DNA of 38,250 nt from an uncultured Erysipelotrichales bacterium. Its GTDB lineage: Bacteria; Bacillota_I; Bacilli_A; Erysipelotrichales; Coprobacillaceae. How positions within the stretch are numbered: the stretch's first letter is position 1; each line of letters starts with the position of its first letter. Below the pieces are notes generated by a model. It was not told the origin of the DNA. It saw nothing but the letters and a program-made list of their open reading frames with translations, and ran no database searches. The DNA is taken from the NCBI GenBank assembly GCA_964369175.1, contig CAYJEM010000013.1, positions 1-38,250 on the forward strand, read 5' to 3'. The translations under genes and the position numbers were made by a program. This document shows positions 4,059 through 33,204 of this stretch, piece after piece.

Positions 4059-4104
4059 CAAAGAAGGGAGAAATCCCTTTTTGTACTACATAAGGAGGAA
4101 ATAT

Positions 4105-4890
4105 ATGAAAAAATCTATTTTTTTTGATATTGATGGAACATTGGTAGGTCACAAATTTGGTATGGATGACATACCAAAAGAAGTAATTATAGAGTTAGAA
4201 CGTTTAAGGGAATTAGATTATACTTTGTTTCTAGCTACTGGAAGACCTTTGGTATTAGTGCCAGATGAGCTTAAGAAATATGATTTTGATGGTATGATTT
4301 TATGTAATGGAGCACATGTACTATTGGGTGATAAAGATATCTATTTAGAAACAGTAGATAAAGATGATTTGTCATCAGCTATTCAATTTCTAGATGAGAA
4401 TAATAGTCAATATGTCTATCATACAGCTGATAAAATATATTTAAAAGATGGATATAAAGAAATCTATGACTTCTATAGTAGGTTAGGCATGAAAGATAGT
4501 GATGTAATAAGTGAATATAAAAATGATGAGGTTTTTGAAAAGACTTTAAAAGTTGAAATTCTTTTTGATAAAGATAAGTATCAAAATGTCATTGATAAAA
4601 TTAGTAAGGATTTCCAAATTGATACTTTTGGGGCATTTGATAGTTTAGAATTTTATAGTAAAAGTACATCAAAAGCTCGTGGTATTCAAAGAGTTTTAGA
4701 ACACTTGCATATTGATGTTGAAAATAGTTATGCATATGGTGATGGAACGAATGATATTGAAATGATTAAATTTGTTGGTCATGGGGTTGCGATGGGTAAT
4801 GCAGCAAAAGAACTAAAAGAGGTTGCTGATGAAGTGTGTGGACATGTGGCTAACAATGGTTTAGCATTAGCACTTCAAAAATTAAAATAG
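4105..4890 (+). CDS. Cof-type HAD-IIB family hydrolase (sugar-phosphatase-like)
   Basis: FFDIDGTL motif I and a C-terminal GDGTND motif. Start chosen at the ATG 6 nt after aaggagg. Confidence 0.8.
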   Translation: MKKSIFFDIDGTLVGHKFGMDDIPKEVIIELERLRELDYTLFLATGRPLVLVPDELKKYDFDGMILCNGAHVLLGDKDIYLETVDKDDLSSAIQFLDENNSQYVYHTADKIYLKDGYKEIYDFYSRLGMKDSDVISEYKNDEVFEKTLKVEILFDKDKYQNVIDKISKDFQIDTFGAFDSLEFYSKSTSKARGIQRVLEHLHIDVENSYAYGDGTNDIEMIKFVGHGVAMGNAAKELKEVADEVCGHVANNGLALALQKLK

Positions 4891-4900
4891 AGTGGAAACG

Positions 4901-4924
4901 CTCTTTTTTTGTCAATCTTGTTAT
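4901..4924 (+). terminator. Rho-independent terminator
   Basis: Stem agagtg/cgctct around a GAAA tetraloop, then a T7 run. Confidence 0.55.
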
Positions 4925-4968
4925 TTTTTTAAAACCATATTATAATAGATAAGACAGGGGGAAAGAAT

Positions 4969-6630
4969 ATGTCGATGCAAATATTATTATCATTTTTATT
5001 AGCGATGGTTGTTTCTGCAATGCTTATCCCAGTTGTGATGAAAGTGGGTAGCTCGCTTGACGTAGTTGCCAAGATGAATAAACGTACAGTTCATAAGCAT
5101 GAAATTGTTCGTATTGGTGGACTTGCGGTATATATAGCGTTTTTACTTGGAGTAGTACTTTTCTTGCAAACAGATTCACAAATCAACTCAATTTTATTAG
5201 CAGGTTTTTTAATCTTTATAGTTGGTTTACTAGATGATATTTATGATCTTCCAGCAAAAGTTAAGCTTATAGGAGAATTTGCTGCTAGTATGATTGTTAT
5301 CTTTTACGGAGATATTCAATTGCAGGGATTTTCAAATATTATGCCTTTTTTACCAGAAATAATTACAACAATATGGATAGTGGGTATTACGAATTCTATT
5401 AATTTAATTGATGGTCTTGATGGTCTATCTGGTGGTATTTCAGTTATTGTACTAGTTACCGTATCAATTACTTCATTGCTTAGTGGTAGGGTTGATATTG
5501 CTTCATTATCATTATTGTTAGCAGGAGCTGTTACAGGTTTTTTATTCTTTAATTTTCATCCTGCAAAAATATTTTTAGGTGATTGTGGGGCCTTGTTTGT
5601 AGGATTTATGATTGCTGTTATATCATTGCTAGGTTTTGGATATAGTGTGTCAGCATTTTTTACATTAGGAGCACCAATTATTGCATTGATGGTACCTATT
5701 ACAGATACAATTTTAGCAATAATTCGTAGAAAACTAAAAAACAAGAAATTTAGTGATGCTGATCGTCATCATTTACATCATCGACTTATGTTTAAAGCAA
5801 AATTAGGACATACTAGAAGTGTAATTGTACTTTATGCAGTTACCATTCTATTTTCAATAACATCATTTTTATATTTGTATGATGTTGTTTTAGGAACAGT
5901 AATGTTTATCGTCCTTTTTCTTATCTTCGAGCTATTTGTTGAGTATACAAATATGATCAGCCGTAACTTTAAACCGTTACTTACAATAGCAAATATTTTC
6001 ATACAGAGTAAACGATTACCAACAATAAGTGCCGTTGAAAACTATCGAAATAGTCATATTGGAAAAAAACATCCAATTAGAAAGGTTGTGGGTATTGTAT
6101 TCTCTATTGCTGCAATGGTGGCAATAATGTACTATGCTTTTATGCAATCTATGCCAAAAGAGACACCAGTGATTGATATTCCATATACAGAAGTGACACC
6201 GTCATCAGTATTAATGAATATGACATATACAAATTTGGAAACTGCAGTTCAAGCACAAAATAGTGACCAAGTTGCTCAGTTAGTGGCAGCATATTTTTTA
6301 CAACAATACCTATCACCACAATATAGTCATGACGTAGTGGAGGGTCTAGAGTATGTCTTACCAGAAATTCGCGAAGATTTTGAGAAAATATCAAATGAAC
6401 AAATGACATTACTTTTAGATACATATCCTAATCTAGAAGTAACTAGCTATGAAATTATTTCTTTTTCACCATCGAAATTACAACTTGATGGGTTTGTTGA
6501 TAATCGCTATTATTCAGTTCTAATAGATTATAAGTTTAGTGAAGAAGTTGAAGAGTTACAAGAGTATGCAACAGTTACAGTGATGGAAAATCAAGGGGTA
6601 TTTTACGTGGTTGGAATTGAAAATAACTAG
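4969..6630 (+). CDS. MraY/WecA/TagO-family UDP-HexNAc:undecaprenyl-phosphate HexNAc-1-P transferase with an added ~190 aa C-terminal extracytoplasmic domain
   Basis: Polytopic N-terminal ~360 aa carrying the NSINLIDGLDGL motif of the GT4 MraY/WecA family. The C-terminal ~190 aa have no recognisable motif. Confidence 0.8.
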   Translation: MSMQILLSFLLAMVVSAMLIPVVMKVGSSLDVVAKMNKRTVHKHEIVRIGGLAVYIAFLLGVVLFLQTDSQINSILLAGFLIFIVGLLDDIYDLPAKVKLIGEFAASMIVIFYGDIQLQGFSNIMPFLPEIITTIWIVGITNSINLIDGLDGLSGGISVIVLVTVSITSLLSGRVDIASLSLLLAGAVTGFLFFNFHPAKIFLGDCGALFVGFMIAVISLLGFGYSVSAFFTLGAPIIALMVPITDTILAIIRRKLKNKKFSDADRHHLHHRLMFKAKLGHTRSVIVLYAVTILFSITSFLYLYDVVLGTVMFIVLFLIFELFVEYTNMISRNFKPLLTIANIFIQSKRLPTISAVENYRNSHIGKKHPIRKVVGIVFSIAAMVAIMYYAFMQSMPKETPVIDIPYTEVTPSSVLMNMTYTNLETAVQAQNSDQVAQLVAAYFLQQYLSPQYSHDVVEGLEYVLPEIREDFEKISNEQMTLLLDTYPNLEVTSYEIISFSPSKLQLDGFVDNRYYSVLIDYKFSEEVEELQEYATVTVMENQGVFYVVGIENN

Positions 6631-6705
6631 TATTGTATTTCATATTATTTTATGTTATCATGGGTAGGAGTGTTTACGTATAAAAAAGGTTAGGAGGACT
6701 GACAG

Positions 6706-6936
6706 ATGTTACAAACAATATTAAATGTCGTATTTATAATTATTGCTATCGCACTTATTATTTTATGCCTATTACAAAGTGGAAAATCAGATGGTGTTGT
6801 TAATGCCTTATCTGGTCAAAGTTCAAACTTATTTGCACAATCAAAAGAACGTGGTTCAGAGCTATTTATTACAAGACTTACAACTGGTCTTGCAATTGCT
6901 TTCTTTGTTGTTGCACTTATGTTACGTATGGGTTAA
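6706..6936 (+). CDS. secG: Preprotein translocase subunit SecG
   Basis: 76 aa, two TM segments, LLQSGKSDG... QSSNLF motif. RBS aggagg. Confidence 0.8.
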   Translation: MLQTILNVVFIIIAIALIILCLLQSGKSDGVVNALSGQSSNLFAQSKERGSELFITRLTTGLAIAFFVVALMLRMG

Positions 6937-6981
6937 AACTAATAGGACGAAAGTCCTATTTTTTGTTTTAAGGAGGAAAAA

Positions 6982-9243
6982 ATGAAACAAACAATATTAA
7001 ATATTTTAGCGAATGATGACTTCTTGAAACGTACACCATCATCACTGGCAAAGGAATTAGGATATCAAACAAAAGAAGAATTTACATCATTTATGAAAGT
7101 ATTAAATCAGCTAGAAGAAGAGCTAGTAGTGATTCGTAATGATAAAGATGAGTATTATTTACCTACCCAAAAGAATATGGTTATAGGAATATTATCAATT
7201 AACAAAAAAGGGTTTGGATTTGTACGATTAGAAGATGAAAATTTAGAAGATATTTTTATATCAAAAGAATCTTTGAAAGGCGCATTTGATAAAGACACAG
7301 TATTAGCACAAATTGAAGAGCAACAAAAAGGAAATCGTAAAGAGGGAAAAATCCTTCGAGTAATCAAAAGAGGAAAAACAAGAATTGTTGGTGAGCTAAG
7401 ACAAGGAAATCGCGATTGTTATGTAGAGAGTACGGTTTTAGGATTAGATAAAAGAATATACATTGATAAAGGGCATTTGCACGGTGCAACAGTAGGACAT
7501 GTTGTTGCTGTTGAAATAAAAGTATACAAACCATTAGTAAAAGGAACAGTTGTTGACATTATTGGACATAAAAGTGATCCAGGTGTGGATATATTATCCG
7601 TAGTTAGTGATCATGGTGTAGATATTGCTTTCCCAAAAGAAGTTTATAAACAAATCGATTATATTCAAGATGAAGTATTAGAAGCAGATTTAGTAGGTAG
7701 ACTAGATTTACGTAAAGAAGTTATTGTAACGATAGACGGAGATGATGCTAAAGATTTAGATGATGCCATATCACTGACAATCAATGAAAATGGAAACTAT
7801 TATTTAGGAGTGCATATTGCTGATGTAAGTCACTATGTTAGTGAAGATTCACCGTTGGATAAAGAGGCAGTTGAAAGAGGAACGTCAATTTACTTAGTTG
7901 ACAGAGTGATTCCGATGTTACCTCACAAATTATCAAATGGAATTTGTTCATTAAATCCTCATGTTGACCGTTTAACAATGTCGTGTTTTATGGAGATTGA
8001 CAAAACTGGTGAAGTTATTGATTATAAAATAGATCAAAGTGTTATTCACTCAACTGAGAGAATGACATATAATAATGTAAATAAAATACTTGCTGGTGAC
8101 AAAGAAATGACAAAGCAGTATCAACATGTACAAGATTTATTCTTTTTAATGCAAGAACTTGCATCTATATTACAAAATAAAAGAGAGCAACGTGGTGCTA
8201 TCGACTTTGATGTAAAAGAAGCTAAAGTGTTGGTAAATAAAAAAGGAAAACCGACAGATGTTGTTTTAAGAGAACGAGGAATAAGTGATCGTATTATAGA
8301 ATCATTTATGTTACAAGCAAATGAAACGGTAGCAAAACATTTTTGCTTATTTGATAAACCATTTATTTATCGTGTTCATGAGCATCCAAAATTATCAAAA
8401 TTACAACAATTTACTGGTATTGCCAAAACAATGGGTTATGAAATCGAAGGTTCATTAGAAGATATCGAACCGATGCAATTACGTAAGCTTATTGAATCAA
8501 GTCGTGATAAAGAAGAACATGATGTTATTACAACACTGTTATTACGCTGCATGCAAAAAGCGGCATATGATGAAAACTGCTTGGGCCACTATGGTTTAGC
8601 TGATGAGTATTATACACATTTTACTTCACCAATTCGTCGTTATCCTGATTTACTTGTACATCGATTAATACGTACATATTTGGTACAAAATAAGCTTGAT
8701 AATGAGACGTTAAATCACTTTAATGAAGTAGTACCAATTCTTGCTAAAAAGTCTTCTGAAAGAGAAAGACTTGCAATAACTATTGAACGTGAAGTCGAAG
8801 ATATGAAAAAAGCTGAGTTTATGGAACAATATATCAATAAAGAATTTGATGGTATTATTAGTTCAGTTACTAGTTTTGGATTTTTTGTGGAATTAGAAAA
8901 TACAATTGAAGGTTTAGTCCATGTACTAGATTTATCTGATGATTTCTATTTCTATGATGAAAAGAAACTACAATTTATTGGTCAACGTACTGGTAAACAT
9001 TTTGGGCTTTCTGATAAAGTGCGTGTTCGCGTTAGTGGTGCTAGTAAAAAGGAACGTAATATTGATTTTGTAATTGTTGGTATGAAACCAAATAAAAGCC
9101 GTAGAAAAGTAGTAATTAAAACAGATAAGAAAGCAAATAATAGTTACCGTAATAAAAAAAATAAACATCAAAGAAATAATGATGGAAAAAGACAAGATAG
9201 AAGAAGTATAATTAAAAAAGGAAAACATTCTAGGAGGAAGTAA
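6982..9243 (+). CDS. rnr: Ribonuclease R (RNB family 3'-5' exoribonuclease)
   Basis: 753 aa with cold-shock/OB domain, RNB catalytic core, S1 domain and a lysine/arginine-rich C-terminal tail. The secG-rnr-smpB-ssrA order is the conserved one. Confidence 0.9.
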
Positions 9244-9245
9244 CA

Positions 9246-9692
9246 ATGAAAATTATTTCAAATAATAAAAAAGCATACCACGATTATTTTATTGAAGATA
9301 CTGTTGAAGCAGGAATTGTTTTACAAGGAACAGAAATAAAATCAGTTAGAAATGGAAATGTTAATTTGAAAGATAGTTTCATTAGAATAAAGAATGAAGA
9401 AGCATATTTAGAAAACATGCATATTTCACCTTATGAACAAGGGAATCGTTTCAATCATGACCCGTTGCGCAATCGTAAACTATTATTACATAAAAAAGAA
9501 ATCTTAAAGCTTCAACAAAGAGCAAAAGAAGATGGACTAGCAATTATACCAACAAAACTATATTTTGGTAATGGTAGTAAAGTGAAAGTGGAAGTAGCAC
9601 TTGCTAAAGGAAAAAAACTATACGATAAACGTCAAGATTTGAAAGAAAAAGACGCAAAAAGAGAAATTGAAAAAGCTATGAAAAATTACTAA
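9246..9692 (+). CDS. smpB: SsrA-binding protein SmpB
   Basis: 148 aa, sequence typical of SmpB. It lies immediately upstream of the tmRNA. Confidence 0.9.
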
Positions 9693-9734: not shown

Positions 9735-10081
9735 GGGGATGTCTTGGATTCGACAGGGGCAAGTCTGACCTTAGCTGCAGTCGTAGTCGTACGTTAAACG
9801 AAACAAAAAATAACTGGAAACAGAACAAACTATTCTTTCGCATAGTCGACATAGACTTGAAAGTGCCACTACTTATCGTGCCTATAAATAAGTAACTGGT
9901 ATTATACTCATAGGATAAGGGTTATTATTTCTTAGCTAATAATCTCGAAAAACTAATAAGATCGCTAGGTGTAAAATTGCTTATTGATTGTAGCCTAGTT
10001 AAATCTATTCAATAAGATAAACTGTAGACGCTTTGGAGGGACTGTTTTTGGACAGGGGTTCGATTCCCCTCATCTCCACCA
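9735..10081 (+). ncRNA. ssrA: tmRNA (SsrA); predicted tag reading frame GGA AAC AGA ACA AAC TAT TCT TTC GCA TAG at 9816-9845 gives (A)GNRTNYSFA
   Basis: 5' end GGGGAUGUCUUGGAUUCGACAGGGG. 3' end GGACAGGGGUUCGAUUCCCCUCAUCUCCACCA (T-arm plus acceptor plus CCA). The AAUAACUGG(A/C) box before the resume codon matches B. subtilis ssrA. It is located right after smpB. Confidence 0.85.
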
Positions 10082-12185: not shown

Positions 12186-13139
12186 ATGGATTTAAATCAG
12201 TTGTATCTAACAAATAACGAATGTTATCAAGTTGGAGCAAAGATGAAACCAATAGGCGTTATGTGGCATTCAACAGGAGCAAATAACCCAACATTAAAAA
12301 GATATGTTGGACCAGATGATGGAAAATTAGGTAATAATCGATATGGTAATCACTGGAATCAATTTCGTCCTGATGGTCGACAAGTATGTGTGCATGGATT
12401 TATTGGAAGGCTGGAAAATGGAAATATTGCAACATATCAAACTTTACCATTTGATATGAAAGGATGGCATGCTGGGGGATCTGCTAATAATAATTATGTT
12501 GGATTTGAAATATGTGAAGATGGATTAGATGATATTTATTATTTTAATGCAGTATATCAAGAAGCTGTTGAATTTAGTGCTTTTATATGCAAGCAACAAG
12601 GGCTAGATCCACTCGCTGGAAATACAATTATCTGTCATAGTGATGGATATAAATTAGGAATTGCATCAAATCATAGTGATGTATATCATTGGTTTAATCG
12701 ATATGGAAAAACCATGGATAATGTACGTTTAGATATAAAAAATGCAATGAATCCAAAACCACCATTCCAAGTACGTGGACATATTCAAAATGAGGGCTGG
12801 CAGTCATGGCAAACAAGCATGGTTGGTACTATTGGAAAATCACTTAGATTAGAAGCATTACAATTTGATACCGAGCTATCACTAGGTAGAATCTTATTAC
12901 ATTTACAAGATGTTGGCTGGGTTGATTATACAGATATTAATAAGGATACGATTATCGGAAGTGTGAATCAAAGTAGAAGAATCGAGTGTATTGAAATAAC
13001 TTGTCCAAATATGGAGTATCGTGTTCATCAAGAAGGTATTGGTTGGACATCATGGACAAAAGCAGATGGTATCTCATCACTTGGAAGTGTAGGACAAGGG
13101 TTACGTTTAGAAGCAATCGAATTTCGATTTACAGACTAG
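12186..13139 (+). CDS. N-acetylmuramoyl-L-alanine amidase (Amidase_2/CwlA-like) with two C-terminal ChW cell-wall-binding repeats
   Basis: GVMWHSTGANN, GWHAGG...YVGFEICEDG and ICHSDG resemble CwlA zinc-amidase motifs. The two ~50 aa repeats (VRGHIQNEGWQSWQT...GKSLRLEALQF and YRVHQEGIGWTSWT...GQGLRLEAIEF) fit the ChW consensus. Confidence 0.8.
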   Translation: MDLNQLYLTNNECYQVGAKMKPIGVMWHSTGANNPTLKRYVGPDDGKLGNNRYGNHWNQFRPDGRQVCVHGFIGRLENGNIATYQTLPFDMKGWHAGGSANNNYVGFEICEDGLDDIYYFNAVYQEAVEFSAFICKQQGLDPLAGNTIICHSDGYKLGIASNHSDVYHWFNRYGKTMDNVRLDIKNAMNPKPPFQVRGHIQNEGWQSWQTSMVGTIGKSLRLEALQFDTELSLGRILLHLQDVGWVDYTDINKDTIIGSVNQSRRIECIEITCPNMEYRVHQEGIGWTSWTKADGISSLGSVGQGLRLEAIEFRFTD

Positions 13140-13141
13140 AA

Positions 13142-13166
13142 AAGGTGTAACCCTTTTCTTTTTATG
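13142..13166 (+). terminator. Rho-independent terminator after the amidase gene
   Basis: Stem gaaaagg/ccttttc with loop tgtaac, followed by TTTTTAT. Confidence 0.6.
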
Positions 13167-13207: not shown

Positions 13208-13909
13208 ATGGCAGTAATGTATCCAATTATAAAGAAATATATAGTTGATGAAATAAAAAACGGTAATTATACAGAAGAATCAATGCTTCCTGCAGAACGT
13301 GAATTTACAGACAGATTTCAAGTATCAAGGATGACAGTTCGTCGTGCTTTTGATGAGCTTATTCAAGATGGAATACTTATAAGAAAAAGTGGAACAGGTG
13401 TGTTTGTAGCACCGCAAAAGCAAACCAAATCATATGACAAACTTTCATTTAAAAATGATACTGAATTAATTGAAAAATATGGAAAGATAACTACAAAAGT
13501 AATTTCCTTAAAACTTGTAACAAACCATCAATTAGTTAATAAGTATTTAGAATTAGAAAATGATGAAGAAGTATATCAACTAAAAAGAGTTCAATATGGA
13601 GGGAATATCCCATTAGTGTATGAGAATATATTTTTACCAAAGAAGTACTTTAAAAATATTTTTAAAGTTGACTGTACTCAATCCATGCAAGAAATTATTA
13701 AAGAAACATTATTAGAAAAGAAACCACAACACAATATAATAGAAGTTGAAGCATCTAGTGTTTCAAGGTTGCTAGGAGCAACCCTTCAACTACCACAAGG
13801 AGCTATTATCATGAAACTAACAAATATTGTTATGAGTGAAGGTAAAGCAATTTATTTTGGGGTTGATAGCATTGATGGTAATAGATTTAAATATATATCA
13901 AAGAACTAA
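13208..13909 (+). CDS. GntR/HutC-subfamily transcriptional regulator (winged HTH plus UTRA effector domain)
   Basis: The N-terminus (LPAEREFTDRFQVSRMTVRRAFDELIQDGIL) is a GntR HTH. The C-terminal ~150 aa are UTRA-like. RBS aggagga. Confidence 0.85.
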   Translation: MAVMYPIIKKYIVDEIKNGNYTEESMLPAEREFTDRFQVSRMTVRRAFDELIQDGILIRKSGTGVFVAPQKQTKSYDKLSFKNDTELIEKYGKITTKVISLKLVTNHQLVNKYLELENDEEVYQLKRVQYGGNIPLVYENIFLPKKYFKNIFKVDCTQSMQEIIKETLLEKKPQHNIIEVEASSVSRLLGATLQLPQGAIIMKLTNIVMSEGKAIYFGVDSIDGNRFKYISKN

Positions 13910-13912
13910 CAG

Positions 13913-13962
13913 CATTGTCTATACAATGTTGTTTTTATTATTGCATCATTGTCTAGACAATG
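13913..13962. promoter_or_regulatory. Two dre-like palindromes (CATTGTCTATACAATG, and a perfect 16-mer CATTGTCTAGACAATG) 34 bp apart, 30-80 bp upstream of the methyltransferase operon
   Basis: The GT-N-TA-N-AC core matches HutC/NagR/DasR-type operators (ATTGGTCTAGACCA). They lie between the GntR gene and the first methyltransferase gene. Confidence 0.55.
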
Positions 13963-13992
13963 TTACAATAATGTTGTTGATAGGAGGATATT

Positions 13993-15354
13993 ATGAATAA
14001 AAAAGATATATTGTTGAAGTTATTAAATAAGGAAAAAGTTGAAATAATTCCATGGGTTCCTTTTGTTGGAGTACATGGAGGATTGTTAATAGACGCAGAC
14101 GCAACAATGGTATTACAAGATGAAGAAAAGTTGTATCAATCAATTATTAAAGCAAATCAATTATATAAACCATATGGTCAACCAGTAATCTTTGATTTAC
14201 AAGTAGAAGCAGAGATTTTAGGATGTGATTTGCGTTGGGCAAAAGATTCTCCACCTTCAGTTGTAAGTCATCCATTAAGTGGCAGTGAAGATATCGTTAT
14301 TCCTTGTATATGTACATTACCAAAAAAGACGGATGGTCGTTTACCAATGATTTTACGTGTCATGGAAAGAGTAAAAAAAGATATTGGTGAGACTACCGCA
14401 TTATATGGTCTGATTTGTGGTCCGTTTACCTTAGCTGCGCATTTACGTGGTAATGATATTTTTATGGATATGTATGATGATGAAGAACAAGTTATTGCTT
14501 TTTTAGATTATTGCGCTGAAGTTGCAAAGCTTATGGCTACTTATTACATAGAAGCAGGAATGGATGTAATTGCAGTTGTTGATCCACTTATTTCACAAAT
14601 TTCTTTGGATCATTTTGAATATTTTATGGAAAAACCTTTTACTGAACTATTTATGCATATTACAAACCAAAACAGGAAATCATCATTCTTTGTATGCGGG
14701 GATGCTACTCGAAATATTGAAGGAATGTGCAAAACAAAACCAGACTCAATATCTGTAGATGAAAATGTAAATATTATTAAAGCAAAAAAAGTTACGGATA
14801 AATATAATATTGTAATTGGAGGGAATATTCCGCTAACAACAACAATGTTACATGGTAGTCAGCATGATAATATGAAATATGTTGTGGATTTACTTGATAA
14901 CATGGAAAACCGAGATAAATTCGTATTATCACCTGGATGTGATATGCCTTATGCAACACCAATAAACAATGTTATTGGTGTAAGTCAAGCAGTTCTGGAG
15001 TTAGATAAAACAAGAAAAATGTTAACTGATTATATAAGTGTAAATGATGAAATAGATATAGAATTTCCTAATTATCAATCACTAGAAAAACCGTTGATTG
15101 AAGTATTTACTCTAGATTCTGCAACTTGTGCAGCATGTACATATATGATGGCAGCAGCTATGAACGCTAAAGCGATATTTGGTGATGAGATAGATGTTGT
15201 CGAATATAAATATACATTAAAAGAAAATATTGCTAGGGTAAAGAAAATGGGGGTTACAAATTTACCATCAATTTATATAAATGGCAAAATTGCGTTTAAA
15301 TCCATTGTACCCTCTAGTGGAGAATTGAATAATAAAATTAAAGAAGTTATATAA
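13993..15354 (+). CDS. MtaA/CmuA-family (UroD superfamily) methylcobamide:acceptor methyltransferase fused to a C-terminal thioredoxin_3-like CxxC domain
   Basis: Residues 1-345 align motif-by-motif with MtaA (VEAEILGC...PSVVSHPL, GPFTLAAHLRGNDIFM, EAGMDVIAVVDP, LSPGCDMPY). The HxC zinc motif reads FVCGD. The last ~100 aa (IEVFTLDSATCAACTYM...NLPSIYINGKI...SSGEL) resemble small redox-active disulfide protein 2. Confidence 0.8.
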   Translation: MNKKDILLKLLNKEKVEIIPWVPFVGVHGGLLIDADATMVLQDEEKLYQSIIKANQLYKPYGQPVIFDLQVEAEILGCDLRWAKDSPPSVVSHPLSGSEDIVIPCICTLPKKTDGRLPMILRVMERVKKDIGETTALYGLICGPFTLAAHLRGNDIFMDMYDDEEQVIAFLDYCAEVAKLMATYYIEAGMDVIAVVDPLISQISLDHFEYFMEKPFTELFMHITNQNRKSSFFVCGDATRNIEGMCKTKPDSISVDENVNIIKAKKVTDKYNIVIGGNIPLTTTMLHGSQHDNMKYVVDLLDNMENRDKFVLSPGCDMPYATPINNVIGVSQAVLELDKTRKMLTDYISVNDEIDIEFPNYQSLEKPLIEVFTLDSATCAACTYMMAAAMNAKAIFGDEIDVVEYKYTLKENIARVKKMGVTNLPSIYINGKIAFKSIVPSSGELNNKIKEVI

Positions 15355-15364
15355 GGAGAATAAC

Positions 15365-15994
15365 ATGGAAAAATTAGAAGAAATAAGTGATCTATTACAA
15401 CGAGGACGTGCTAAGCAAATAAATGCTGTAATTCAAGAAGCATTAGATGAAGGTGTTGAAGCAGATACAATATTAAAGGACGCCTTGCTTGCAGGAATGT
15501 CAATCGTTGGTGAAAAATTCCGTAATGATGAAGTATTTGTACCAGAGGTACTAGTTGCAGCAAGGGCGATGAACCGAGGTGTTGAGTATTTAAAAGACTA
15601 TTTATCAGGTGATGGAAATCAAAGCGTTGGTAAAGTAGTAATTGGTACCGTCAAAGGAGATTTACATGATATTGGTAAAAATCTTGTAAAAATCATGTTA
15701 GAAGGAAAAGGAATTGAAGTCATCGACTTAGGTACCGACGTAGAGGCAAAAACTTTTGTCGAAAAAGCAATTGAAAATGATGTCGATATTATTTGTTGTA
15801 GTGCCTTACTTACAACTACAATGCCAGAAATGAAAAAAGTAGTTGAATTAGTTAAAGAAAATAATCTAGATGTAAAAGTTATGATTGGCGGAGCACCAGT
15901 AAATCAAGAGTTTTGTGATGAAATACAAGCTGATTATTATACAGATGATGCGGCAAGTGCAGCAAATGTTGCTAGTGAAATATTAGGAGGGTAG
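15365..15994 (+). CDS. Corrinoid (B12)-binding protein, MtaC/MtbC/MttC-like
   Basis: The N-terminal helical cap is followed by a Rossmann B12-binding domain with a DxHxxG motif (GDLHDIGKN) and a GG motif further downstream. Confidence 0.85.
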   Translation: MEKLEEISDLLQRGRAKQINAVIQEALDEGVEADTILKDALLAGMSIVGEKFRNDEVFVPEVLVAARAMNRGVEYLKDYLSGDGNQSVGKVVIGTVKGDLHDIGKNLVKIMLEGKGIEVIDLGTDVEAKTFVEKAIENDVDIICCSALLTTTMPEMKKVVELVKENNLDVKVMIGGAPVNQEFCDEIQADYYTDDAASAANVASEILGG

Positions 15995-15997
15995 ACA

Positions 15998-17095
15998 ATG
16001 TTAACAGACGCAAAGAAACAACAGTTGGTTATAGATAGTGAAAAATGGTGGGAACATACTTTAGAAAGACCGCTTATGCAAGTAACCCTAAGCAAAGATG
16101 TATATGGAGAGGATTCATATGGATTATCACGTGGTAGGCTGCTAGAGATATTGTACGACCCAACAGTAGCTCCAAGAGACGTTGCTAAGCTATATCGTAA
16201 AGATTTAGAAAACAAAGAATATTATGGTGATGCATTTCCAGTTTTCTATATGCGTTCTACTGGAATACTTGGAGCAATGCTTGGCCAAGGATTTAATATT
16301 GACATGGAACATGGTACTGTCTGGTTTGAAGAATTAGAGGGGAAAGAGTTAGAAGATATTCATCCGGTACTAGATTCAAATAATTGGTTGTATGTACGTG
16401 GAAAAGAATTGATAGAAGCATTTGAAAATGAATTTAAAGATGAAATTGGAATTGGTATACCTAATCTTGGTGGAATGATGGATATTGTTGAATCTATGCG
16501 TGGAGCAAATAATTCTTTAATGGATTTATATGATGATCCAGAAGAAGTAATACGCTTAAATGATGATATTTACGCTGCTTATAAAAAAGCATATGATGAA
16601 TACATAAAAAACATAAATAATGATAAAATTTTGGGATATAGTGGATGGATTACATTGCTATCTCAAAAACCATACTTTATTTCACAATGTGATTTTTGTT
16701 GTATGATAGGTCCAGCACAATTTGATGAATTTGTATATGATACATTAGAAAAAGAAGCAAATCTAATTGAACGCTCATTTTATCATTTAGATGGTCCAGG
16801 TGCTGTGAAACATTTAGATCGTATTATTGAAGCAGGATTCGATGGAATTCAATGGATAAACGGTGCTGGCTCTAAACCATTAGATGATCCAAGGTGGGAT
16901 GATATTTATAAAAAAGTACATAAAGCTGGAAAACTGCTACAAGTGTATATTTATAACCAGAATGAATTAAAATATATAGATCATATTGTAAACCTACTTG
17001 GTACAACAAAAGGATTAGCATTTATTTGCGTTGGTAAAAAAGAAGAAAAAATTGCGTACCTTGAATATTTAGAAAAATATAATGTACCACTATGA
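15998..17095 (+). CDS. Divergent UroD-superfamily methyltransferase, candidate substrate:corrinoid methyltransferase (MT I)
   Basis: 365 aa with weak but recognisable UroD/MtaA-like blocks (GGMMDIVESMRGANNSLMDLYDDPEEV, FYHLDGPG, EAGFDGIQW). Its stop overlaps the next start (ATGA). Confidence 0.55.
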   Translation: MLTDAKKQQLVIDSEKWWEHTLERPLMQVTLSKDVYGEDSYGLSRGRLLEILYDPTVAPRDVAKLYRKDLENKEYYGDAFPVFYMRSTGILGAMLGQGFNIDMEHGTVWFEELEGKELEDIHPVLDSNNWLYVRGKELIEAFENEFKDEIGIGIPNLGGMMDIVESMRGANNSLMDLYDDPEEVIRLNDDIYAAYKKAYDEYIKNINNDKILGYSGWITLLSQKPYFISQCDFCCMIGPAQFDEFVYDTLEKEANLIERSFYHLDGPGAVKHLDRIIEAGFDGIQWINGAGSKPLDDPRWDDIYKKVHKAGKLLQVYIYNQNELKYIDHIVNLLGTTKGLAFICVGKKEEKIAYLEYLEKYNVPL

Positions 17096-17970
17096 TAGAT
17101 GTACACGTTATTACAGGATTTTTAGGTGCTGGTAAAACCACAATTATTAAGTCATTGTTAAAGCAAATGAAAGATAAGAAAGTAAATCTAATAATTAACG
17201 AATTTGGAAAAGAAAGTATTGATGATATATTACTAGAAAAACAAGCTAATTACTTAGAAAGCATTCATAATGGTTCAGTATTTTGTGCTTGTAAATTAGA
17301 AGACTTACGTCGCGCAATGGATGTAAGTCTAAAAAGAAATCCTGATATGATTATTATTGAAACTTCAGGTTTGACAAATCCAGAAAGTGTATATCATCTC
17401 TTAAATAAACATAATTATCCTCGGGTAAATAATTGCTATGTGACAACGATTGTAGATGGTAAGAATTTTCATAAAGTATTTAAGAATGTTCTTGCAGTTG
17501 AAAAGCAATTGGAGGTAGCTGACAATGTAATTATTAATAAATGGGATAATCAATACACAATTATAGATGAAATTAGTGAAGTGAACCCAAATGCAAAAAT
17601 CATACATACAACAAATGGTATTGAAAATGTGGTGTTACCTATATCAAAAGTAAAAAATATAATACATTCACAGGTAGGTGTTAAAGATTTAACAAATAGT
17701 AAGTATCTACTACAAATAGATCAAAAAGTAAAAATGAGCGAACTGATATCTTTTGTCGAATCGATATCAAAACGATGTATGCGAATTAAAGGAATTATAT
17801 CAATAGAGAATAAAAATTATCTAGTTGAAGCAGTGATGGAAGAATACTCGATTAAGGAAATAGATGCTAAATCTACAGGATTAGTTATTTTAGGGAAAAA
17901 TACATTATTATCTAAAAAGCAAGTACAACATATCATATTAAATCAAAAAATAGATATCTGTATTGTATAG
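17092..17970 (+). CDS. COG0523/CobW-like G3E-family P-loop GTPase (putative metallochaperone)
   Basis: Walker A VITGFLGAGKTT, a metal-binding CxC variant (VFCACK), and switch regions ETSG and NKWD. Confidence 0.75.
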   Translation: MIDVHVITGFLGAGKTTIIKSLLKQMKDKKVNLIINEFGKESIDDILLEKQANYLESIHNGSVFCACKLEDLRRAMDVSLKRNPDMIIIETSGLTNPESVYHLLNKHNYPRVNNCYVTTIVDGKNFHKVFKNVLAVEKQLEVADNVIINKWDNQYTIIDEISEVNPNAKIIHTTNGIENVVLPISKVKNIIHSQVGVKDLTNSKYLLQIDQKVKMSELISFVESISKRCMRIKGIISIENKNYLVEAVMEEYSIKEIDAKSTGLVILGKNTLLSKKQVQHIILNQKIDICIV

Positions 17971-17981
17971 GAAGGAAATAT

Positions 17982-19403
17982 ATGAAAACATATCTAGATG
18001 TTATTCAAGAACAAGGTACATTTTTACAGGCAACTTGCAATGGAAACAAAACATGTGGACAATGCAAAATAATTATGGAAAAAGTAGTACCGATATATGA
18101 TCAAGAGAAAAGGTTTTTAAGTGATAAAGATATATCTAATAATATACGACTAGCATGTTTTCATGAATATGATAGCAATGTTACGTATCAACTTTTAAAA
18201 ACAAAGTTTGATATTCTAGATAGTCTTAAAGAGGAAAAAAGTAATAATAAAGAACATCATAATCATAAAACTTTGATTATAGATATTGGAACAACTACGA
18301 TTGTAATGAAGTGGGTAGCACTGAATTCAGGAAAAGTTTTAAAAACAAAGTCTTTTAGAAATCCTCAGATTACATACGGTAGTGATGTGGTTTCAAGAAT
18401 TCGTTATAGTATTAATAAGCCATTTGTGTTGCATGATATACTAATTGATAAAATCACGTGTCATCTCGAGGGTGAAACAGATTTTTCTACGATGGTAGTA
18501 TGTGGTAATACAGTGATGCTTAATTTGTTTTTAAATCAAGATATTACCACGTTAGGTGTTGTACCATTTATAATCCCAATTAAGGATATGCAAATAATTA
18601 CATCGCCATCTATTTTTAAGAATGTTAATAGAGAATTTACAGTCATTACCTTCCCGCATATTGATAGCTATGTTGGTGGTGATATTGTTGCCGGTATATA
18701 TGCAACAAATATTGATATGGAAAAGAATAATTGTATGTTAATTGATTTAGGTACAAATGGAGAAATAGTTGTTGGAAATAATAAGACTATCTATACAACA
18801 TCTACTGCAGCCGGCCCAGCTTTTGAGGGTGTTGGCATAAACTGTGGGTGTCCAAGTATTCAAGGTGCAGTAACTAAAGTTTCATATCAAAATGGTAAGG
18901 TGTACTACACAACGATTGGGAACCTTCCACCAATAGGAATATGTGGCAGTGGGCTCGTTAGTATAATAGCGATGGCTAAAAATAATGGGATAATTGATGA
19001 ATTAGGACGTTTTACTAGTAATCAAAAAGAGTTGTTTATAAGTAAAGATGTGTATATTAATCAGTGTGATATTCAAAAATTCATTCTAGCAAAGGCAGCA
19101 ATTCAAGCAGGGATAATGGTACTTTTAGAAAAAGTTGAAAGTGTTGAAAAAATATACATTGCAGGTGGATTGGGAACAAATATTGATATACAAGATTTAA
19201 TTGACTTAAAGATAATACCTAGTAAATATGTTGATTGTGTTGAAAGTGTTGGTAATAGTGCACTTCAAGGTATATATAGTTATTCCTTGAAACAAGACAA
19301 AGGTAGAATCGAAAATATTGTAAAGTTGTCTAAGAGTATTAACTTAGCTACTTTAGATAATTTTGATGATTATCTAATTGAAGGGTTATATATTGATGAT
19401 TAA
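17982..19403 (+). CDS. RACE/RACo-type ATP-dependent reductive activator of corrinoid proteins (N-terminal [2Fe-2S] ferredoxin-like domain plus ASKHA ATPase)
   Basis: The N-terminus has a Cys cluster (CNGNKTCGQCKI...C). The downstream domain has actin-like ATPase phosphate motifs (IDIGTTT, IDLGTNGE, AGGLGTN). Confidence 0.7.
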   Translation: MKTYLDVIQEQGTFLQATCNGNKTCGQCKIIMEKVVPIYDQEKRFLSDKDISNNIRLACFHEYDSNVTYQLLKTKFDILDSLKEEKSNNKEHHNHKTLIIDIGTTTIVMKWVALNSGKVLKTKSFRNPQITYGSDVVSRIRYSINKPFVLHDILIDKITCHLEGETDFSTMVVCGNTVMLNLFLNQDITTLGVVPFIIPIKDMQIITSPSIFKNVNREFTVITFPHIDSYVGGDIVAGIYATNIDMEKNNCMLIDLGTNGEIVVGNNKTIYTTSTAAGPAFEGVGINCGCPSIQGAVTKVSYQNGKVYYTTIGNLPPIGICGSGLVSIIAMAKNNGIIDELGRFTSNQKELFISKDVYINQCDIQKFILAKAAIQAGIMVLLEKVESVEKIYIAGGLGTNIDIQDLIDLKIIPSKYVDCVESVGNSALQGIYSYSLKQDKGRIENIVKLSKSINLATLDNFDDYLIEGLYIDD

Positions 19404-20031
19404 AGTAATATCGTGTGGTGTATTCAAACCGTATATTGAACATTTAGAAATAGATAAATCAATATATCAATTCGTATATCTAGACATACATCAACACAAT
19501 CAACCTAAGCAACTATCAAAAGAATTACAAAGAGAAATTAATAAACCAACTAATGCATCTAACATTATTCTTTTGTATGGGCTATGTGGGGGAGCGCTGC
19601 TTTCAATTACAACGAATAGCATACCTATAACAATTGTCCAAGTCCATGATTGTATGGCTATTCTACTTGGAAGTAAGAAAAAGTATTTTGAGTTAACAAA
19701 AACAAATAAGTCAATTCAATGGACAAGTTATAGCTTAAGACAAAGTAATTACATAAATAATAGTATTGATGAATGGTCAAATCAATATGATGAAGAAACT
19801 GTTGAATATTTAAAAGAGATGTTACTTTTTGAAAATCCTATCTATATCTACTTAGATATAGATAAAGAGAGTAATGTATTACAAGAGTATAGTAAAGTCA
19901 TTGTCGGAAGTAATCAATTTCTAAAAGATATATTATTATTACAAGCAAAAGACATTATTACATTATATCCACGTCATAAGCTAAAACAATCTCTTGATAA
20001 TAAAGTAGTAATTAGCCTACCAATAGAGTAA
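19396..20031 (+). CDS. Hypothetical protein, possibly DUF1638-like (a family often linked to corrinoid methyltransferase operons)
   Basis: Its start overlaps the RACE stop (ATGATTAA), suggesting translational coupling. An alternative TTG start lies at 19378. The family assignment is from memory and is low confidence. Confidence 0.5.
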   Translation: MIKVISCGVFKPYIEHLEIDKSIYQFVYLDIHQHNQPKQLSKELQREINKPTNASNIILLYGLCGGALLSITTNSIPITIVQVHDCMAILLGSKKKYFELTKTNKSIQWTSYSLRQSNYINNSIDEWSNQYDEETVEYLKEMLLFENPIYIYLDIDKESNVLQEYSKVIVGSNQFLKDILLLQAKDIITLYPRHKLKQSLDNKVVISLPIE

Positions 20032-21299: not shown

Positions 21300-22355
21300 A
21301 TGACAACCGCATATAAATGTGAAAACTGTGGTGACACAATGTTATTTGATCCTAAAAGTGGAACTTTAAAATGTCCTGCTTGTGATAGCGAAATAACAAT
21401 TGAACATGATGCAAGTAAAGTTGTTGAACATACATTAACATTAGATGCAAAGCGATCAATTAAAGCAACTGAAAAAGAAACCCATACAATGGAATGTACA
21501 GGGTGTGGGGCCAAAATAGAAGTTGATGGTAATTCTACGGCAACTGAATGTCCGTATTGTGGTTCTAAGTTCGTACTTGCTAAAAAACAAGAAGATGCTC
21601 TAATTCCTGATGGATTAGTATCATTTAAAATTGATAGAAATGATGCTAAAAGATTGTTTGGTGAATGGATAAGTAATCGTTTTTGGGCACCTGGTGAATT
21701 AAAAGGGCTGCACCAAAAAGGAAAGATATTAGGTATTTATTTACCGTATTGGACATTTGATGCTGATGCATATACAAAGTATACTGCTAAAGGTGGAATA
21801 AATCGCACGGAAACATACGAAGATGATGAAGGGAATACACATACAAGTACAAAAACTGACTGGTATCCTACAAGGGGTCAAGTATCTAAGTTTATTGATG
21901 ATGAACTGGTGCCGGCAACTGCCGATGTAAGTGCCAATATCTTATCAAAACTTGATACTTTCGATACAACATCGGTAGTATCGTATGCTCCAGAATATTT
22001 GTCTGGTTATAATGCACAGTGTTATTCGATAAATTTAGATGATGCACATGTAGTTGCTAGAGGTAAAATGGATGAACAATTACGCCAATTAGTACGACAA
22101 GATGTACTGCGTAAATATGATGAAGTTGCAGATATTCGTATTGCTCCAGTCTATAGTGATGAAACATATAAGCATATTATGTTACCAATCTACAGTGCTG
22201 CATACCACTATAAGGACAAGGTGTACAATTTACTTATTAATGGACAAACTGGAGAAATTGAAGGTGAATATCCATTAAGTATTATTAAGATTGCAATTGC
22301 AGTTATATTAGCTATTATTTTATGTGCAGTTGCGTATTTTGTTTTTTACAAATAG
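21300..22355 (+). CDS. PspA-associated zinc-ribbon protein with C-terminal TM anchor (B. subtilis YdjG-like)
   Basis: Four CxxC pairs form two zinc ribbons (CENCGD...CPACD and CTGCGA...CPYCGS). There is a C-terminal hydrophobic helix. The start is coupled 1 nt after the pspA stop. Confidence 0.7.
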   Translation: MTTAYKCENCGDTMLFDPKSGTLKCPACDSEITIEHDASKVVEHTLTLDAKRSIKATEKETHTMECTGCGAKIEVDGNSTATECPYCGSKFVLAKKQEDALIPDGLVSFKIDRNDAKRLFGEWISNRFWAPGELKGLHQKGKILGIYLPYWTFDADAYTKYTAKGGINRTETYEDDEGNTHTSTKTDWYPTRGQVSKFIDDELVPATADVSANILSKLDTFDTTSVVSYAPEYLSGYNAQCYSINLDDAHVVARGKMDEQLRQLVRQDVLRKYDEVADIRIAPVYSDETYKHIMLPIYSAAYHYKDKVYNLLINGQTGEIEGEYPLSIIKIAIAVILAIILCAVAYFVFYK

Positions 22356-29093: not shown

Positions 29094-29858
29094 ATGTTTG
29101 CAAAAGAAAGACAAGAAAAAATAGTATCCTTGGTAAATGAAAAAGGATCTATTAAAGTAAAAGAATTAGCAGTACAATTTGAAGTAACCGAAGACAGTAT
29201 CCGTAAAGATTTAACAATTCTCGAAAGAAAAGGATTATTACAAAAAACATATGGTGGAGCCATAAAGGTTAGAACCATTACCCATAACTTTGGAGTTGAC
29301 ACTAGAAGATTATTAAATTCAGATGAAAAGAAAGAAATTGCTAGAAAAGCATTCTCATTAATTGAGGAGGGAGATACTATCTTTCTAGATGTATCAACTA
29401 TTGCTATTGAAATAGCGAACTTAATTGTTGAACATAAAAGCCGTATTACAGTAATGAGTAATATGTTAGATGTATTAAATGTACTTATAAAGTCAAATAC
29501 AATAGATGTATTATTTATTGGTGGGAGTTTAAATCGTACACGTGATGCCTTTATCGGAACTCATGCAATACAACAAATTGAGAAGTTTCAATTTGATAAG
29601 GCATTTTTAGGATGTGTTGGTGTCGATGTGGATGAAGATAAAGTATATACCTATAAGATAGATGATGGATACACAAAAGAAGCAATCTTAAAAGCAACAA
29701 AAAATCCATATTTAGTATTAGAACGTGATAAATTTTTACATGATGGTACATACTGTTATTGTACATTACAAGATTGTAAAGGGGTTATTACAAGTTCAAA
29801 AGTGGATTTAGAAATTGTACATAAAATTCATGAATTGGAAGTTAATATTATAAAGTAA
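29094..29858 (+). CDS. DeoR-family transcriptional regulator (N-terminal HTH, C-terminal sugar-phosphate-binding DeoR_C domain)
   Basis: N-terminal HTH (KERQEKIVSLVNEKGSIKVKELAVQFEVTEDSIRKDL) and a C-terminal ~160 aa DeoR_C-like domain. Confidence 0.85.
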   Translation: MFAKERQEKIVSLVNEKGSIKVKELAVQFEVTEDSIRKDLTILERKGLLQKTYGGAIKVRTITHNFGVDTRRLLNSDEKKEIARKAFSLIEEGDTIFLDVSTIAIEIANLIVEHKSRITVMSNMLDVLNVLIKSNTIDVLFIGGSLNRTRDAFIGTHAIQQIEKFQFDKAFLGCVGVDVDEDKVYTYKIDDGYTKEAILKATKNPYLVLERDKFLHDGTYCYCTLQDCKGVITSSKVDLEIVHKIHELEVNIIK

Positions 29859-29945
29859 TAAAAAGTAATAAAAAACAATAAAAATATATTGACTATTCCA
29901 TGCAATAATATATACTAGTATTGTAAAGTAATAACAAACAATAAC
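29851..29945. promoter_or_regulatory. Promoter region of the glycyl-radical-enzyme operon: TTGACT, 17 nt, ATACTA, flanked by AAAGTAATAA-type direct repeats
   Basis: Tandem aaagtaataa, aaagtaataa and aaaacaataa lie upstream. aaagtaataa and caaacaataa lie downstream of the -10. The same motif occurs at 29051-29064 in the deoR promoter. Confidence 0.45.
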
Positions 29946-29958
29946 TGGAGGAATAAAC

Positions 29959-33193: not shown

Positions 33194-33204
33194 AGGAGAT
33201 AATT

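Follow-up and report, generated by a model that had tools for sequence, protein, structure and literature searches.

A HutC-controlled operon of mosaic origin for B12-dependent methyl transfer in an uncultured gut Erysipelotrichales bacterium

Where would a gut Firmicute take methyl groups from, and to which acceptor would it hand them, if its genes for B12-dependent methyl transfer come without a recognisable folate methyltransferase? The question is raised by a seven-gene cluster (positions 13208-20031) in a 38,250-nucleotide stretch of an uncultured Erysipelotrichales bacterium (assembly GCA_964369175.1, contig CAYJEM010000013.1), hereafter the window. The seven open reading frames (ORFs), all on the same strand and all lying where a sequence-only reading of this DNA had placed them, encode a GntR regulator, a fusion of a URO-D domain with a thioredoxin-like domain (URO-D-Trx), a corrinoid protein (CP), a 365-residue UroD-superfamily protein without a family model (the orphan), a cobW/COG0523-like GTPase, a RACo-type reductive activase and a DUF1638 protein (Table 1). 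The same seven genes in the same order recur in assembly GCA_964372125.1 (locus L008), and nine further Erysipelotrichales loci hold the core set, so that 10 related loci share a HutC/GntR regulator, a CP gene followed by the orphan, a URO-D protein and RACo beside DUF1638. Therefore the cluster is not a chance assembly: it is a genuine repressor-controlled operon for B12-dependent methyl transfer in a gut Firmicute, as the neighbourhood comparison proposed in the earlier reading confirms. The fuller proposal, which by our analysis has about even chances of being right, is that of a three-component system without a canonical folate methyltransferase, in which the orphan would act as substrate:corrinoid methyltransferase (MT I), the CP as methyl carrier and URO-D-Trx as methyl-corrinoid:acceptor transferase (MT II), the acceptor being a thiol.

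Among the structural genes the intergenic gaps measure 3-11 nt, the orphan and cobW genes overlap by 4 nt and the RACo and DUF1638 genes by 8 nt, if the latter starts at the ATG at 19396, a likelier start than the TTG at 19378 with which the mechanically called ORF opens. A Pfam scan of 38 window ORFs (those outside the cluster being at least 100 residues long) left 6 blank, the orphan included, and assigned URO-D, B12-binding, cobW, RACo, DUF1638 and Thioredoxin_3 domains within the cluster, the Thioredoxin_3 match lying above the gathering score. ORF positions and Pfam thereby bear out the earlier inventory of co-oriented, tightly packed and overlapping genes, including the fusion to a thioredoxin-like CxxC domain and the DUF1638-like partner behind RACo, and the family-model search that the sequence-only reading had suggested for each ORF succeeded for all these domains and failed for the orphan. 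In agreement with the same reading, no MtrH or other pterin-binding gene and no Wood-Ljungdahl gene was detected among the scanned ORFs, and no pterin-binding gene was found among the genes called in 11 cassette loci. The 'atypical composition' that had been claimed holds for the gene content and not for the base composition, which is the same in 13208-20031 as in the flanks. The CP scores 192 bits against NCBIfam TIGR02370 (cut-off 215). RACo shows the architecture of RACE/RamA activases, with an N-terminal 2Fe-2S domain (Cys19/25/28/59), a middle domain and an ASKHA domain, and stays under the NCBIfam cut-offs for AcsV (288 bits vs 800) and RamA. Wherever an Erysipelotrichales cassette is long enough to tell (L004-L005 and L008-L014, but not L015, whose short contig is truncated), RACo is paired with DUF1638; so it is in human-gut loci of the L150 type, and genetics has shown that DUF1638 and RamA-like proteins are needed for B12 reactivation (Price 2018, PMC5764234).

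Table 1. Genes and putative operators of the cluster, in order along the window
Feature	Position	Strand	Evidence
HutC-subfamily GntR regulator (winged helix-turn-helix and UTRA effector domain)	13208..13909	+	Pfam GntR E 9e-17, UTRA E 9e-18
Operator 1, imperfect palindrome CATTGTCTATACAATG, core TGTCTATACA	13913..13928	.	Read from the sequence; fits HutC-type GT-N-TA-N-AC
Operator 2, perfect 16-bp palindrome CATTGTCTAGACAATG	13947..13962	.	Some 30 nt ahead of the first structural gene
URO-D-Trx fusion, proposed methyl-corrinoid:acceptor transferase (MT II)	13993..15354	+	Pfam URO-D E 2e-44, Thioredoxin_3 E 7.7e-6
Corrinoid (B12-binding) methyl-carrier protein, D99-x-H101-x-x-G104	15365..15994	+	Pfam B12-binding_2 and B12-binding
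Orphan 365-residue UroD-superfamily protein, no family model; proposed substrate:corrinoid methyltransferase (MT I)	15998..17095	+	
cobW/COG0523-like G3E GTPase with variant metal motif	17092..17970	+	Pfam cobW E 3e-32, Walker A GFLGAGKTT
RACo/RACE-type ATP-dependent reductive activase	17982..19403	+	Pfam RACo_C_ter E 1e-55, Raco_middle E 1e-34, Fer2 E 2e-4
DUF1638 protein, RACo partner	19396..20031	+	Pfam DUF1638 E 2e-21

The regulator scores under all NCBIfam equivalog cut-offs, and its orthologues (42-69% identity) go with the cassette in L004 and L008-L013. Both palindromes sit in the 83 bp that separate gntR from the URO-D-Trx gene, and in nearly all of the related loci (L004 and L008-L014) the core TGTCTAGACA recurs shortly before the first structural gene, against a background of 13 matches in 1.92 Mb of other, unrelated loci. 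The GntR and UTRA domains and the conserved GT-N-TA-N-AC palindromes place the protein in the HutC subfamily, and this operator, as read from the DNA, directly supports the GntR control of the operon that had been proposed before. The hairpin returned after gntR by a terminator scan is operator 1, and a promoter scan was uninformative (46 promoter-like sites vs 52 expected).

Which of the two UroD-fold proteins would face the methyl donor is suggested by gene order. In 10/10 Erysipelotrichales loci the CP gene lies immediately upstream of the orphan, with gaps of a few nt, while the URO-D, RACo-DUF1638 and GntR genes shift position; furthermore, a Chloroflexota locus (L076) holds an orphan homologue together with three URO-D genes, a CP and RACo. 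Both the strict adjacency and the Chloroflexota locus argue for orphan and corrinoid protein being functional partners. In Methanosarcina, mtaB-mtaC, mttB-mttC and like pairs are adjacent, whereas the genes for the shared enzymes MtaA and MtbA lie elsewhere. Since substrate methyltransferases adjoin their corrinoid protein there and MtaA/MtbA are separable, the orphan would be the MT I and the URO-D protein the MT II. The orphan itself gave zero matches in Pfam (E <= 0.01), in NCBIfam and among PDB sequences (phmmer), and BLASTP aligned it with the neighbouring URO-D protein over a 33-residue patch only. Profile-profile alignment against 24 URO-D proteins returned a probability of 97% (E 6.5e-11), giving it the UroD/MtaA-type (beta/alpha)8 fold, and its invariant Y-H263-L-D265-G falls exactly on the H-x-C-G zinc motif. 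Thus, of the 'second divergent UroD-superfamily methyltransferase' of the sequence-only reading the fold stands, and its function as a methyltransferase is one that we infer.

The URO-D position distinguishes the window from its relatives. The other Erysipelotrichales cassettes carry there a protein of 331 residues with the canonical YHNCG...SSGC motifs. We compared the window proteins with the Erysipelotrichales variant-A cassettes (L004, L009-L014), a Lachnospiraceae module and L008; identities, in this order, were 66-76%, 51-61% and 92% for the CP; 44-51%, 28-36% and 71% for RACo; 35-51%, 27% or no match, and 59% for DUF1638; 42-48%, no match and 69% for the GntR regulator; and 22-25%, 52-66% and 81% for the URO-D domain. 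The URO-D-Trx and cobW pair of the window and L008 is 59-66% identical to that of the Lachnospiraceae module. Because CP, RACo, DUF1638 and GntR are closest to the Erysipelotrichales type and URO-D-Trx and cobW to the Lachnospiraceae module, the cassette of the window and L008 is a mosaic in which the latter pair displaced the His-Cys-Cys URO-D protein. A non-orthologous swap at this position argues that the two URO-D proteins are equivalent in role, and since the sister cassettes hold a His-x-Cys...Cys MtaA-like protein there, it would be the acceptor side of the system. The cassette has also moved between chromosomal sites, given its different positions in L004 (whose orphan is 69% identical), where it lies between GT4 glycosyltransferase and RNase R genes; in L008, where an Opp transporter and ClpB flank it; and in the window, where the GT4 and RNase R genes are adjacent (4081-9243) and the cassette follows about 4 kb further downstream.

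What the sequences show is the gene content, the folds, the motifs, the conserved operators and the mosaic origin; the side on which each methyltransferase works, the way the methyl group travels, its donor and acceptor and the roles of the GTPase and the thioredoxin-like domain are what we infer, in a mechanism that would run as follows. The HutC-type protein would bind the two TGTCTA(G/T)ACA palindromes ahead of the operon until an effector releases it. The orphan would then transfer the methyl group of a heteroatom-methyl donor, most likely an O-methyl compound and possibly a methylated sugar, cyclitol or glycoside product, to the Co(I) of the corrinoid protein, from whose methyl-Co(III) form URO-D-Trx would pass it to a small nucleophile, most likely a thiol (sulfide, homocysteine) and not tetrahydrofolate. 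The cobW-like GTPase would most likely metallate or mature URO-D-Trx, the metal site of which has lost its His ligand, a role in keeping with the COG0523 proteins documented beside zinc-dependent corrinoid methyltransferases (Haas 2009, PMC2770081), and RACo and DUF1638 would reduce oxidised Co(II) back to Co(I) with ATP and low-potential electrons. A thiol-type acceptor, already favoured over folate in the sequence-only reading and in our analysis a reasonable choice, is preferred because of the His-Cys-Cys site of the sister cassettes, the lack of a detected folate methyltransferase and the sulfide-dependent demethylation of Parasporobacterium: this ligand set is associated with S/Se-methyltransferases by Kountz & Balskus 2023 (PMC10418091), and the transfer of methoxy-group methyls to sulfide is known physiology in Parasporobacterium (Lomans 2001, as cited in PMC7374477).

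Several observations weigh against this proposal. URO-D-Trx had been regarded as an MtaA-type enzyme, and its PDB sequence matches include MtaA (4ay7, E 1.7e-19) besides a thioredoxin (1nho, E 3.7e-4); by the defining tests on its sequence, the protein does not appear to be one. It falls short of the NCBIfam cut-offs for MtaA, MtbA and MtsA (TIGR01463, NF040654 and NF041608: 125 vs 235, 123 vs 400 and 118 vs 600 bits), and in place of the His-x-Cys...Cys zinc triad it has FFVCG...PGC, with an invariant Phe in the His position. Several genomes hold URO-D-Trx and cobW with neither CP nor RACo nearby. As for the orphan, its metal ligands are ambiguous, comprising His-x-Asp plus a clade-specific C231-x-x-C234, and about 70 other orphan loci (Lachnospiraceae, Christensenellaceae, PVC phyla, Planctomycetota, Chloroflexota) lack a corrinoid protein within 10 kb, so the family as a whole may be independent of corrinoid. 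No transporter gene belongs to the cassette, nor do its flanks hint at a substrate. Finally, a folate methyltransferase could lie elsewhere in the genome, beyond the 38-kb window.

This last point bears on a reading to which we give a small chance, namely that the operon is an ordinary demethylase feeding the folate C1 pool, whether a pterin-binding MT II encoded elsewhere serves as the link or one of the UroD-fold proteins is itself an undiscovered folate methyltransferase. Most characterised bacterial corrinoid demethylases hand the methyl group to tetrahydrofolate (H4folate), 38 kb is the visible portion of the genome, a distant orphan homologue (P0120) was named '5-methyltetrahydrofolate--homocysteine methyltransferase' by JGI, and the possibility is left open for Mlp proteins by Kountz & Balskus (PMC10418091). 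However, their text implies that a UroD-fold folate methyltransferase is not known, the window and cassette loci yielded no pterin-binding gene, and the canonical His-Cys-Cys site of the sister cassettes points to a soft nucleophile.

The wider orphan family bears on the donor side. At 50% identity it comprises 2418 clusters with E <= 1e-3, 794 of them with E <= 1e-30, and it occurs in at least 599 species of the genome collection; none of 156 close cluster representatives has a URO-D or other informative Pfam domain, and among 120 listed homologues PF01208 was found in 0, 119 having no precomputed Pfam domain and one (P0111) Peripla_BP domains only. D78, D162, D232, H263, D265 and H272 are invariant in the family, and no Cys is. 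The motif after strand 5 varies by clade, being Q-C-D-F-C-C-M in corrinoid-linked members, Q-C-D-F-C-Y-M in distant phyla and Q-N-D-F-S-A-M in one Lachnospiraceae clade, so the ligand set is not cleanly 'oxygen-type', and an assignment of the His-x-Asp as a clean site of that type was toned down in view of the clade-specific C231-x-x-C234. Within a corrinoid cassette the orphan occurs only in Erysipelotrichales relatives at 54-85% identity (Thomasclavelia, Coprobacillaceae and Ca. Stoquefichus metagenome-assembled genomes). The corrinoid-free homologues lie beside phosphotransferase system (PTS) genes with GH1; AP_endonuc_2, ROK and GFO/IDH/MocA genes; sugar ABC transporters with ROK; and GH3 or CUT1-type ABC transporter genes, company that suggests carbohydrate-related substrates.

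Given such neighbours, the orphan might instead process carbohydrates as a metal-dependent enzyme, either making the substrate ready or using up the product, with URO-D-Trx carrying out both half-reactions with the CP in the manner of MtsA. To this we assign a slim chance. Most homologues lie without a CP beside GH1/PTS, GH3, ROK kinase, sugar ABC transporter, GFO/IDH/MocA or AP_endonuc_2 genes, the invariant Asp, His, Trp and Tyr residues look like a sugar-binding site, and the Lachnospiraceae URO-D-Trx/CP/RACo module works without an orphan. Yet the chemistry known from the UroD superfamily is methyl transfer or uroporphyrinogen decarboxylation, H263-x-D265 is aligned exactly with the H-x-C metal motif, the strict adjacency of CP and orphan at gaps of a few nt would require another explanation, and a URO-D protein is the commonest neighbour of the orphan family elsewhere. 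This neighbour is of a distinct type with H-x-C/D...H (9/127 immediate neighbours, about 22 loci within 10 kb). Members of this subfamily (L002 15733-16737, L006 15643-16749, L033, L042, L085 and others) have an H-x-C/D-G motif, with a C-terminal His replacing the second zinc Cys, and lie in sugar operons with an ABC transporter, rhaM and AraC genes, with no corrinoid protein nearby.

On the acceptor side, the URO-D-fold domain of URO-D-Trx spans residues 3-334 and the thioredoxin-like domain, with C379-A-A-C382, residues 369-451 approximately. Among 60 unique sequences F232-F233-V234-C235-G236, C316, C379-A-A-C382, H93 and H150 are invariant and C78 nearly so (59/60). The family has more than 120 clusters at 64-79% identity, mainly in Lachnospiraceae (Muricomes, Anaerobium, Sporanaerobium). 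In three genomes and 80 metagenome loci, a cobW-like gene follows URO-D-Trx in nearly all cases with enough downstream sequence; CP and RACo are usually near, the orphan is in none of these loci, and in the 80 metagenome loci the pair is constant, in contrast to the changing set of further URO-D paralogues. A PocR-AraC regulator, a BioB/HydE-like radical SAM protein and DUF2284 are recurrent neighbours. The Lachnospiraceae module (L089 7988-14130, L091, L095-L142) comprises the BioB/HydE-like radical SAM, URO-D-Trx, variant cobW, DUF2284, CP and RACo genes with a divergent PocR-AraC regulator, and in Muricomes it sits among cobalamin genes (CbiJ, CobA/BtuR, CbiM, DUF4430). A distant branch from human gut metagenomes (L150-L166, 50% identity) holds, in this order, URO-D-Trx, cobW, CP, DUF1638 and RACo, with a 462-residue MtaA-like URO-D protein bearing an N-terminal extension about 1.5 kb downstream. 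The partner GTPase of the window has the metal motif NGSVFCACK, i.e. FCAC instead of CxCC, and 'GS+FCxC' is kept in 49 partner sequences; CxCC has been described for all COG0523 members (Haas 2009, PMC2770081).

The Cys-rich site of URO-D-Trx could also be read in the opposite direction. In an S/Se-methyl salvage like that suggested by type 1 mlp clusters, URO-D-Trx would demethylate a methyl-thiol or -selenol onto the CP, and the orphan would pass the methyl group to another acceptor. S/Se-methyl metabolism has been proposed for clusters of MtaA-like, CP and RACE genes, and ClMlp2 methylates selenide in vitro (Kountz & Balskus, PMC10418091). This reversal of roles, which we think fairly improbable, would suit the Cys-rich site with its CxxC domain (C235, C316, C379 and C382 invariant, C78 in 59/60), the weak NCBIfam similarity to seleno-thioredoxin-like families and a CobW-related selenoprotein, and the many Lachnospiraceae loci in which URO-D-Trx is the sole methyltransferase beside CP and RACo, resembling MtsA/MtsB. 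But the kept adjacency of CP and orphan is a pattern typical of substrate methyltransferases, and neither the window cluster nor the flanks scanned in five related cassettes nor the commonest neighbours of the URO-D-Trx module include selenium- or sulfur-metabolism genes. Moreover, only one IPR000257/PF01208-type protein occurs here, and the His-Cys-Cys triad of type 1 Mlps, reported to be invariant apart from several Mlps1, is absent.

A handling of metalloids, i.e. (de)methylation of arsenic, antimony, selenium or tellurium with URO-D-Trx binding the metalloid and the CP donating or accepting the methyl group, has hardly any chance in our estimate. The match of the thioredoxin-like domain to the MTH895/ArsE family, the recurrent DUF2284 of the Lachnospiraceae neighbourhoods, which is fused to an arsenite methyltransferase in some selenoproteins, and a MIP channel or LMW phosphatase/ArsC-like gene next to the pair in single loci would fit. 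A neighbour census of 135 proteins speaks against the metalloid reading of URO-D-Trx: the 25 commonest families include no ArsR, ArsB, ACR3 or ArsA, the MIP and LMWPc neighbours occur in one locus each, and the window carries no pointer to metalloids. The assignment that we prefer, with the orphan on the donor side and URO-D-Trx handing the methyl group to a thiol, is to be placed among known systems.

Closest are the type 1 mlp clusters (Kountz & Balskus 2023, bioRxiv, PMC10418091), which, like the window, come from anaerobic Firmicutes, gut species included, and combine MtaA-like UroD-superfamily proteins with a monomeric CP and a bacterial Ram/RACE activase, both lacking an H4folate methyltransferase and both having a thiol or selenol partner proposed. 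They differ in that the mlp clusters hold at least Mlp2 and Mlp3, both recognisable IPR000257 proteins with His-Cys-Cys, whereas the window has one recognisable URO-D protein with Phe-Cys-Cys, a count based on PF01208 matches, and a second UroD-fold protein of a model-less family with His-x-Asp. A word search of the main text found no thioredoxin fusion, cobW GTPase or DUF1638, and GntR control was not seen in the accessible description of these clusters. The methanogen Mta system (MtaB-MtaC and MtaA with COG0523 subfamily 13 and RamM in Methanosarcina; Haas 2009, PMC2770081) shares the logic of a CP-adjacent substrate methyltransferase, a separate UroD-fold zinc thiol methyltransferase, an activase and a GTPase; the window, in contrast, has no MtaB homologue, its UroD-fold proteins lie under the MtaA/MtbA cut-offs, its GTPase has CxC vs CxCC, a HutC-type repressor regulates it and coenzyme M, which would not be expected in such a lineage, cannot be assumed as the acceptor in a Firmicute. 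The aromatic O-demethylases (OdmABD/VdmB of Acetobacterium, Mtv of Moorella, Dhaf_4610-4612) likewise join a UroD-superfamily MT I, OdmB and VdmB being members, to a CP and an ATP-dependent activase, a likeness at the level of the superfamily; unlike the window ORFs scanned and the cassette loci, they have a gene for a pterin-binding MT II that leads through methyl-H4folate to the Wood-Ljungdahl or C1 pool. In the split methionine synthase (Price 2018, PMC5764234) a RamA/RACo-like activase and DUF1638 also co-occur and are both needed for the activity of a stand-alone B12-binding protein, but there the methyl group goes from methyl-folate to homocysteine via MtrH-like and pterin-binding pieces, with no UroD-fold proteins.

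It follows that the general design of the cassette, and two features that the sequence-only reading had supposed to be new, are already published. A metallochaperone GTPase beside such systems is the very definition of COG0523 subfamily 13, by its co-localisation with corrinoid methyltransferases in Methanosarcina, M. maripaludis (mtaABC), C. botulinum and D. hafniense (Haas 2009, PMC2770081), and the window GTPase, which adjoins corrinoid methyltransferase genes, is likened to it by this association. Likewise, DUF1638 with RamA-like activases was known from genetics (Price 2018), sulfide-dependent methoxy methyl transfer from physiology (Lomans 2001), and a non-folate bacterial cluster of MtaA-like, CP and RACE genes from Kountz & Balskus 2023. 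What that reading had overlooked is the mosaic of two modules and the orphan as a large model-less family found mostly in sugar operons. The searchable literature yielded no description of the URO-D-Trx and variant-cobW pair, the orphan family, the mosaic cassette or the HutC operator, and nothing specific on a characterised orthologous operon, corrinoid-dependent sugar or pinitol demethylation, or Erysipelotrichaceae corrinoid methyltransferases. The operon, without a folate-linked enzyme, thus unites the uncharacterised orphan family with a widespread and apparently undescribed URO-D-Trx and GTPase pair.

The surroundings of the operon are of a housekeeping kind, with SpoIID, MreB, the GT4 transferase, RNase R, SmpB and transfer-messenger RNA (tmRNA), a DEAD helicase and an amidase-ChW protein; downstream of the cassette follow PspA, a Band-7 protein, Fe-ADH, OYE and a DeoR-controlled glycyl-radical enzyme cluster. 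The smpB gene (9246-9692) is directly followed by a full-length tmRNA (9735-10081; Rfam RF00023, 147 bits), and a partial tRNA occupies positions 1-50; these two RNAs were the only matches of an Rfam scan of the window, which found no cobalamin riboswitch. Directly upstream of the cassette lies an endolysin- or autolysin-like protein with Amidase_2 and ChW repeats (12186-13139), followed by a terminator-like hairpin (13138-13159), and in L012 and L013 the cassette is bordered by Amidase_3 genes, all of which may mark a variable region. Behind pspA, and sharing a stop/start region with it, a Pfam-blank ORF of 351 residues (21300-22355) precedes the SPFH/Band-7 protein, possibly as part of an envelope-stress module. 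The catabolic cluster at 29094-33882 is separate and encodes the DeoR regulator, a PFL-like glycyl radical enzyme (781 residues), its radical-SAM activase and a transaldolase/fructose-6-phosphate aldolase. In the five related cassettes scanned, the flanks are not conserved. Neither a glycosidase nor a transporter dedicated to a substrate occurs in them, and their transport-type genes amount to one isolated ABC ATPase and one MatE efflux protein. Several genomes have DUF4430 proteins beside the cassette (L004 12451-15596, L014 5175-5828, L089 7238-7651), in L004 after a 677-residue protein with faint prenyltransferase/squalene-cyclase-like matches, a pair that may resemble transcobalamin-like B12 binders, so that B12 scavenging would fit.

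The orphan family as a whole might represent an unrecognised class of anaerobic O-demethylases for methylated carbohydrates, cyclitols and glycoside-derived aglycones, in which 'spokes' encoded in sugar operons would feed a shared 'hub' of CP, URO-D-Trx, variant COG0523 GTPase and RACo, from which the methyl group would go to a thiol and not to folate. We consider this unlikely on the whole; were it true, the window would be a rare fusion of hub and spoke in one HutC-controlled operon, and the class would be an anaerobic equivalent of the P450 sugar demethylases. The more limited mechanism, if it holds, would mean that non-acetogenic gut Firmicutes could move methyl groups of dietary compounds onto thiols, bypassing folate and the Wood-Ljungdahl pathway, with methanethiol, methionine or similar products. 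Testable handles are at hand in a large UroD-fold family without a Pfam or NCBIfam model, in the conserved pair of URO-D-Trx and variant COG0523 GTPase and in a defined HutC operator, which could be used for finding the inducer. For the annotation of related genomes, the operon calls for caution: the presence of MtaA-like, corrinoid and RACE genes identifies neither the methyl donor nor the acceptor.

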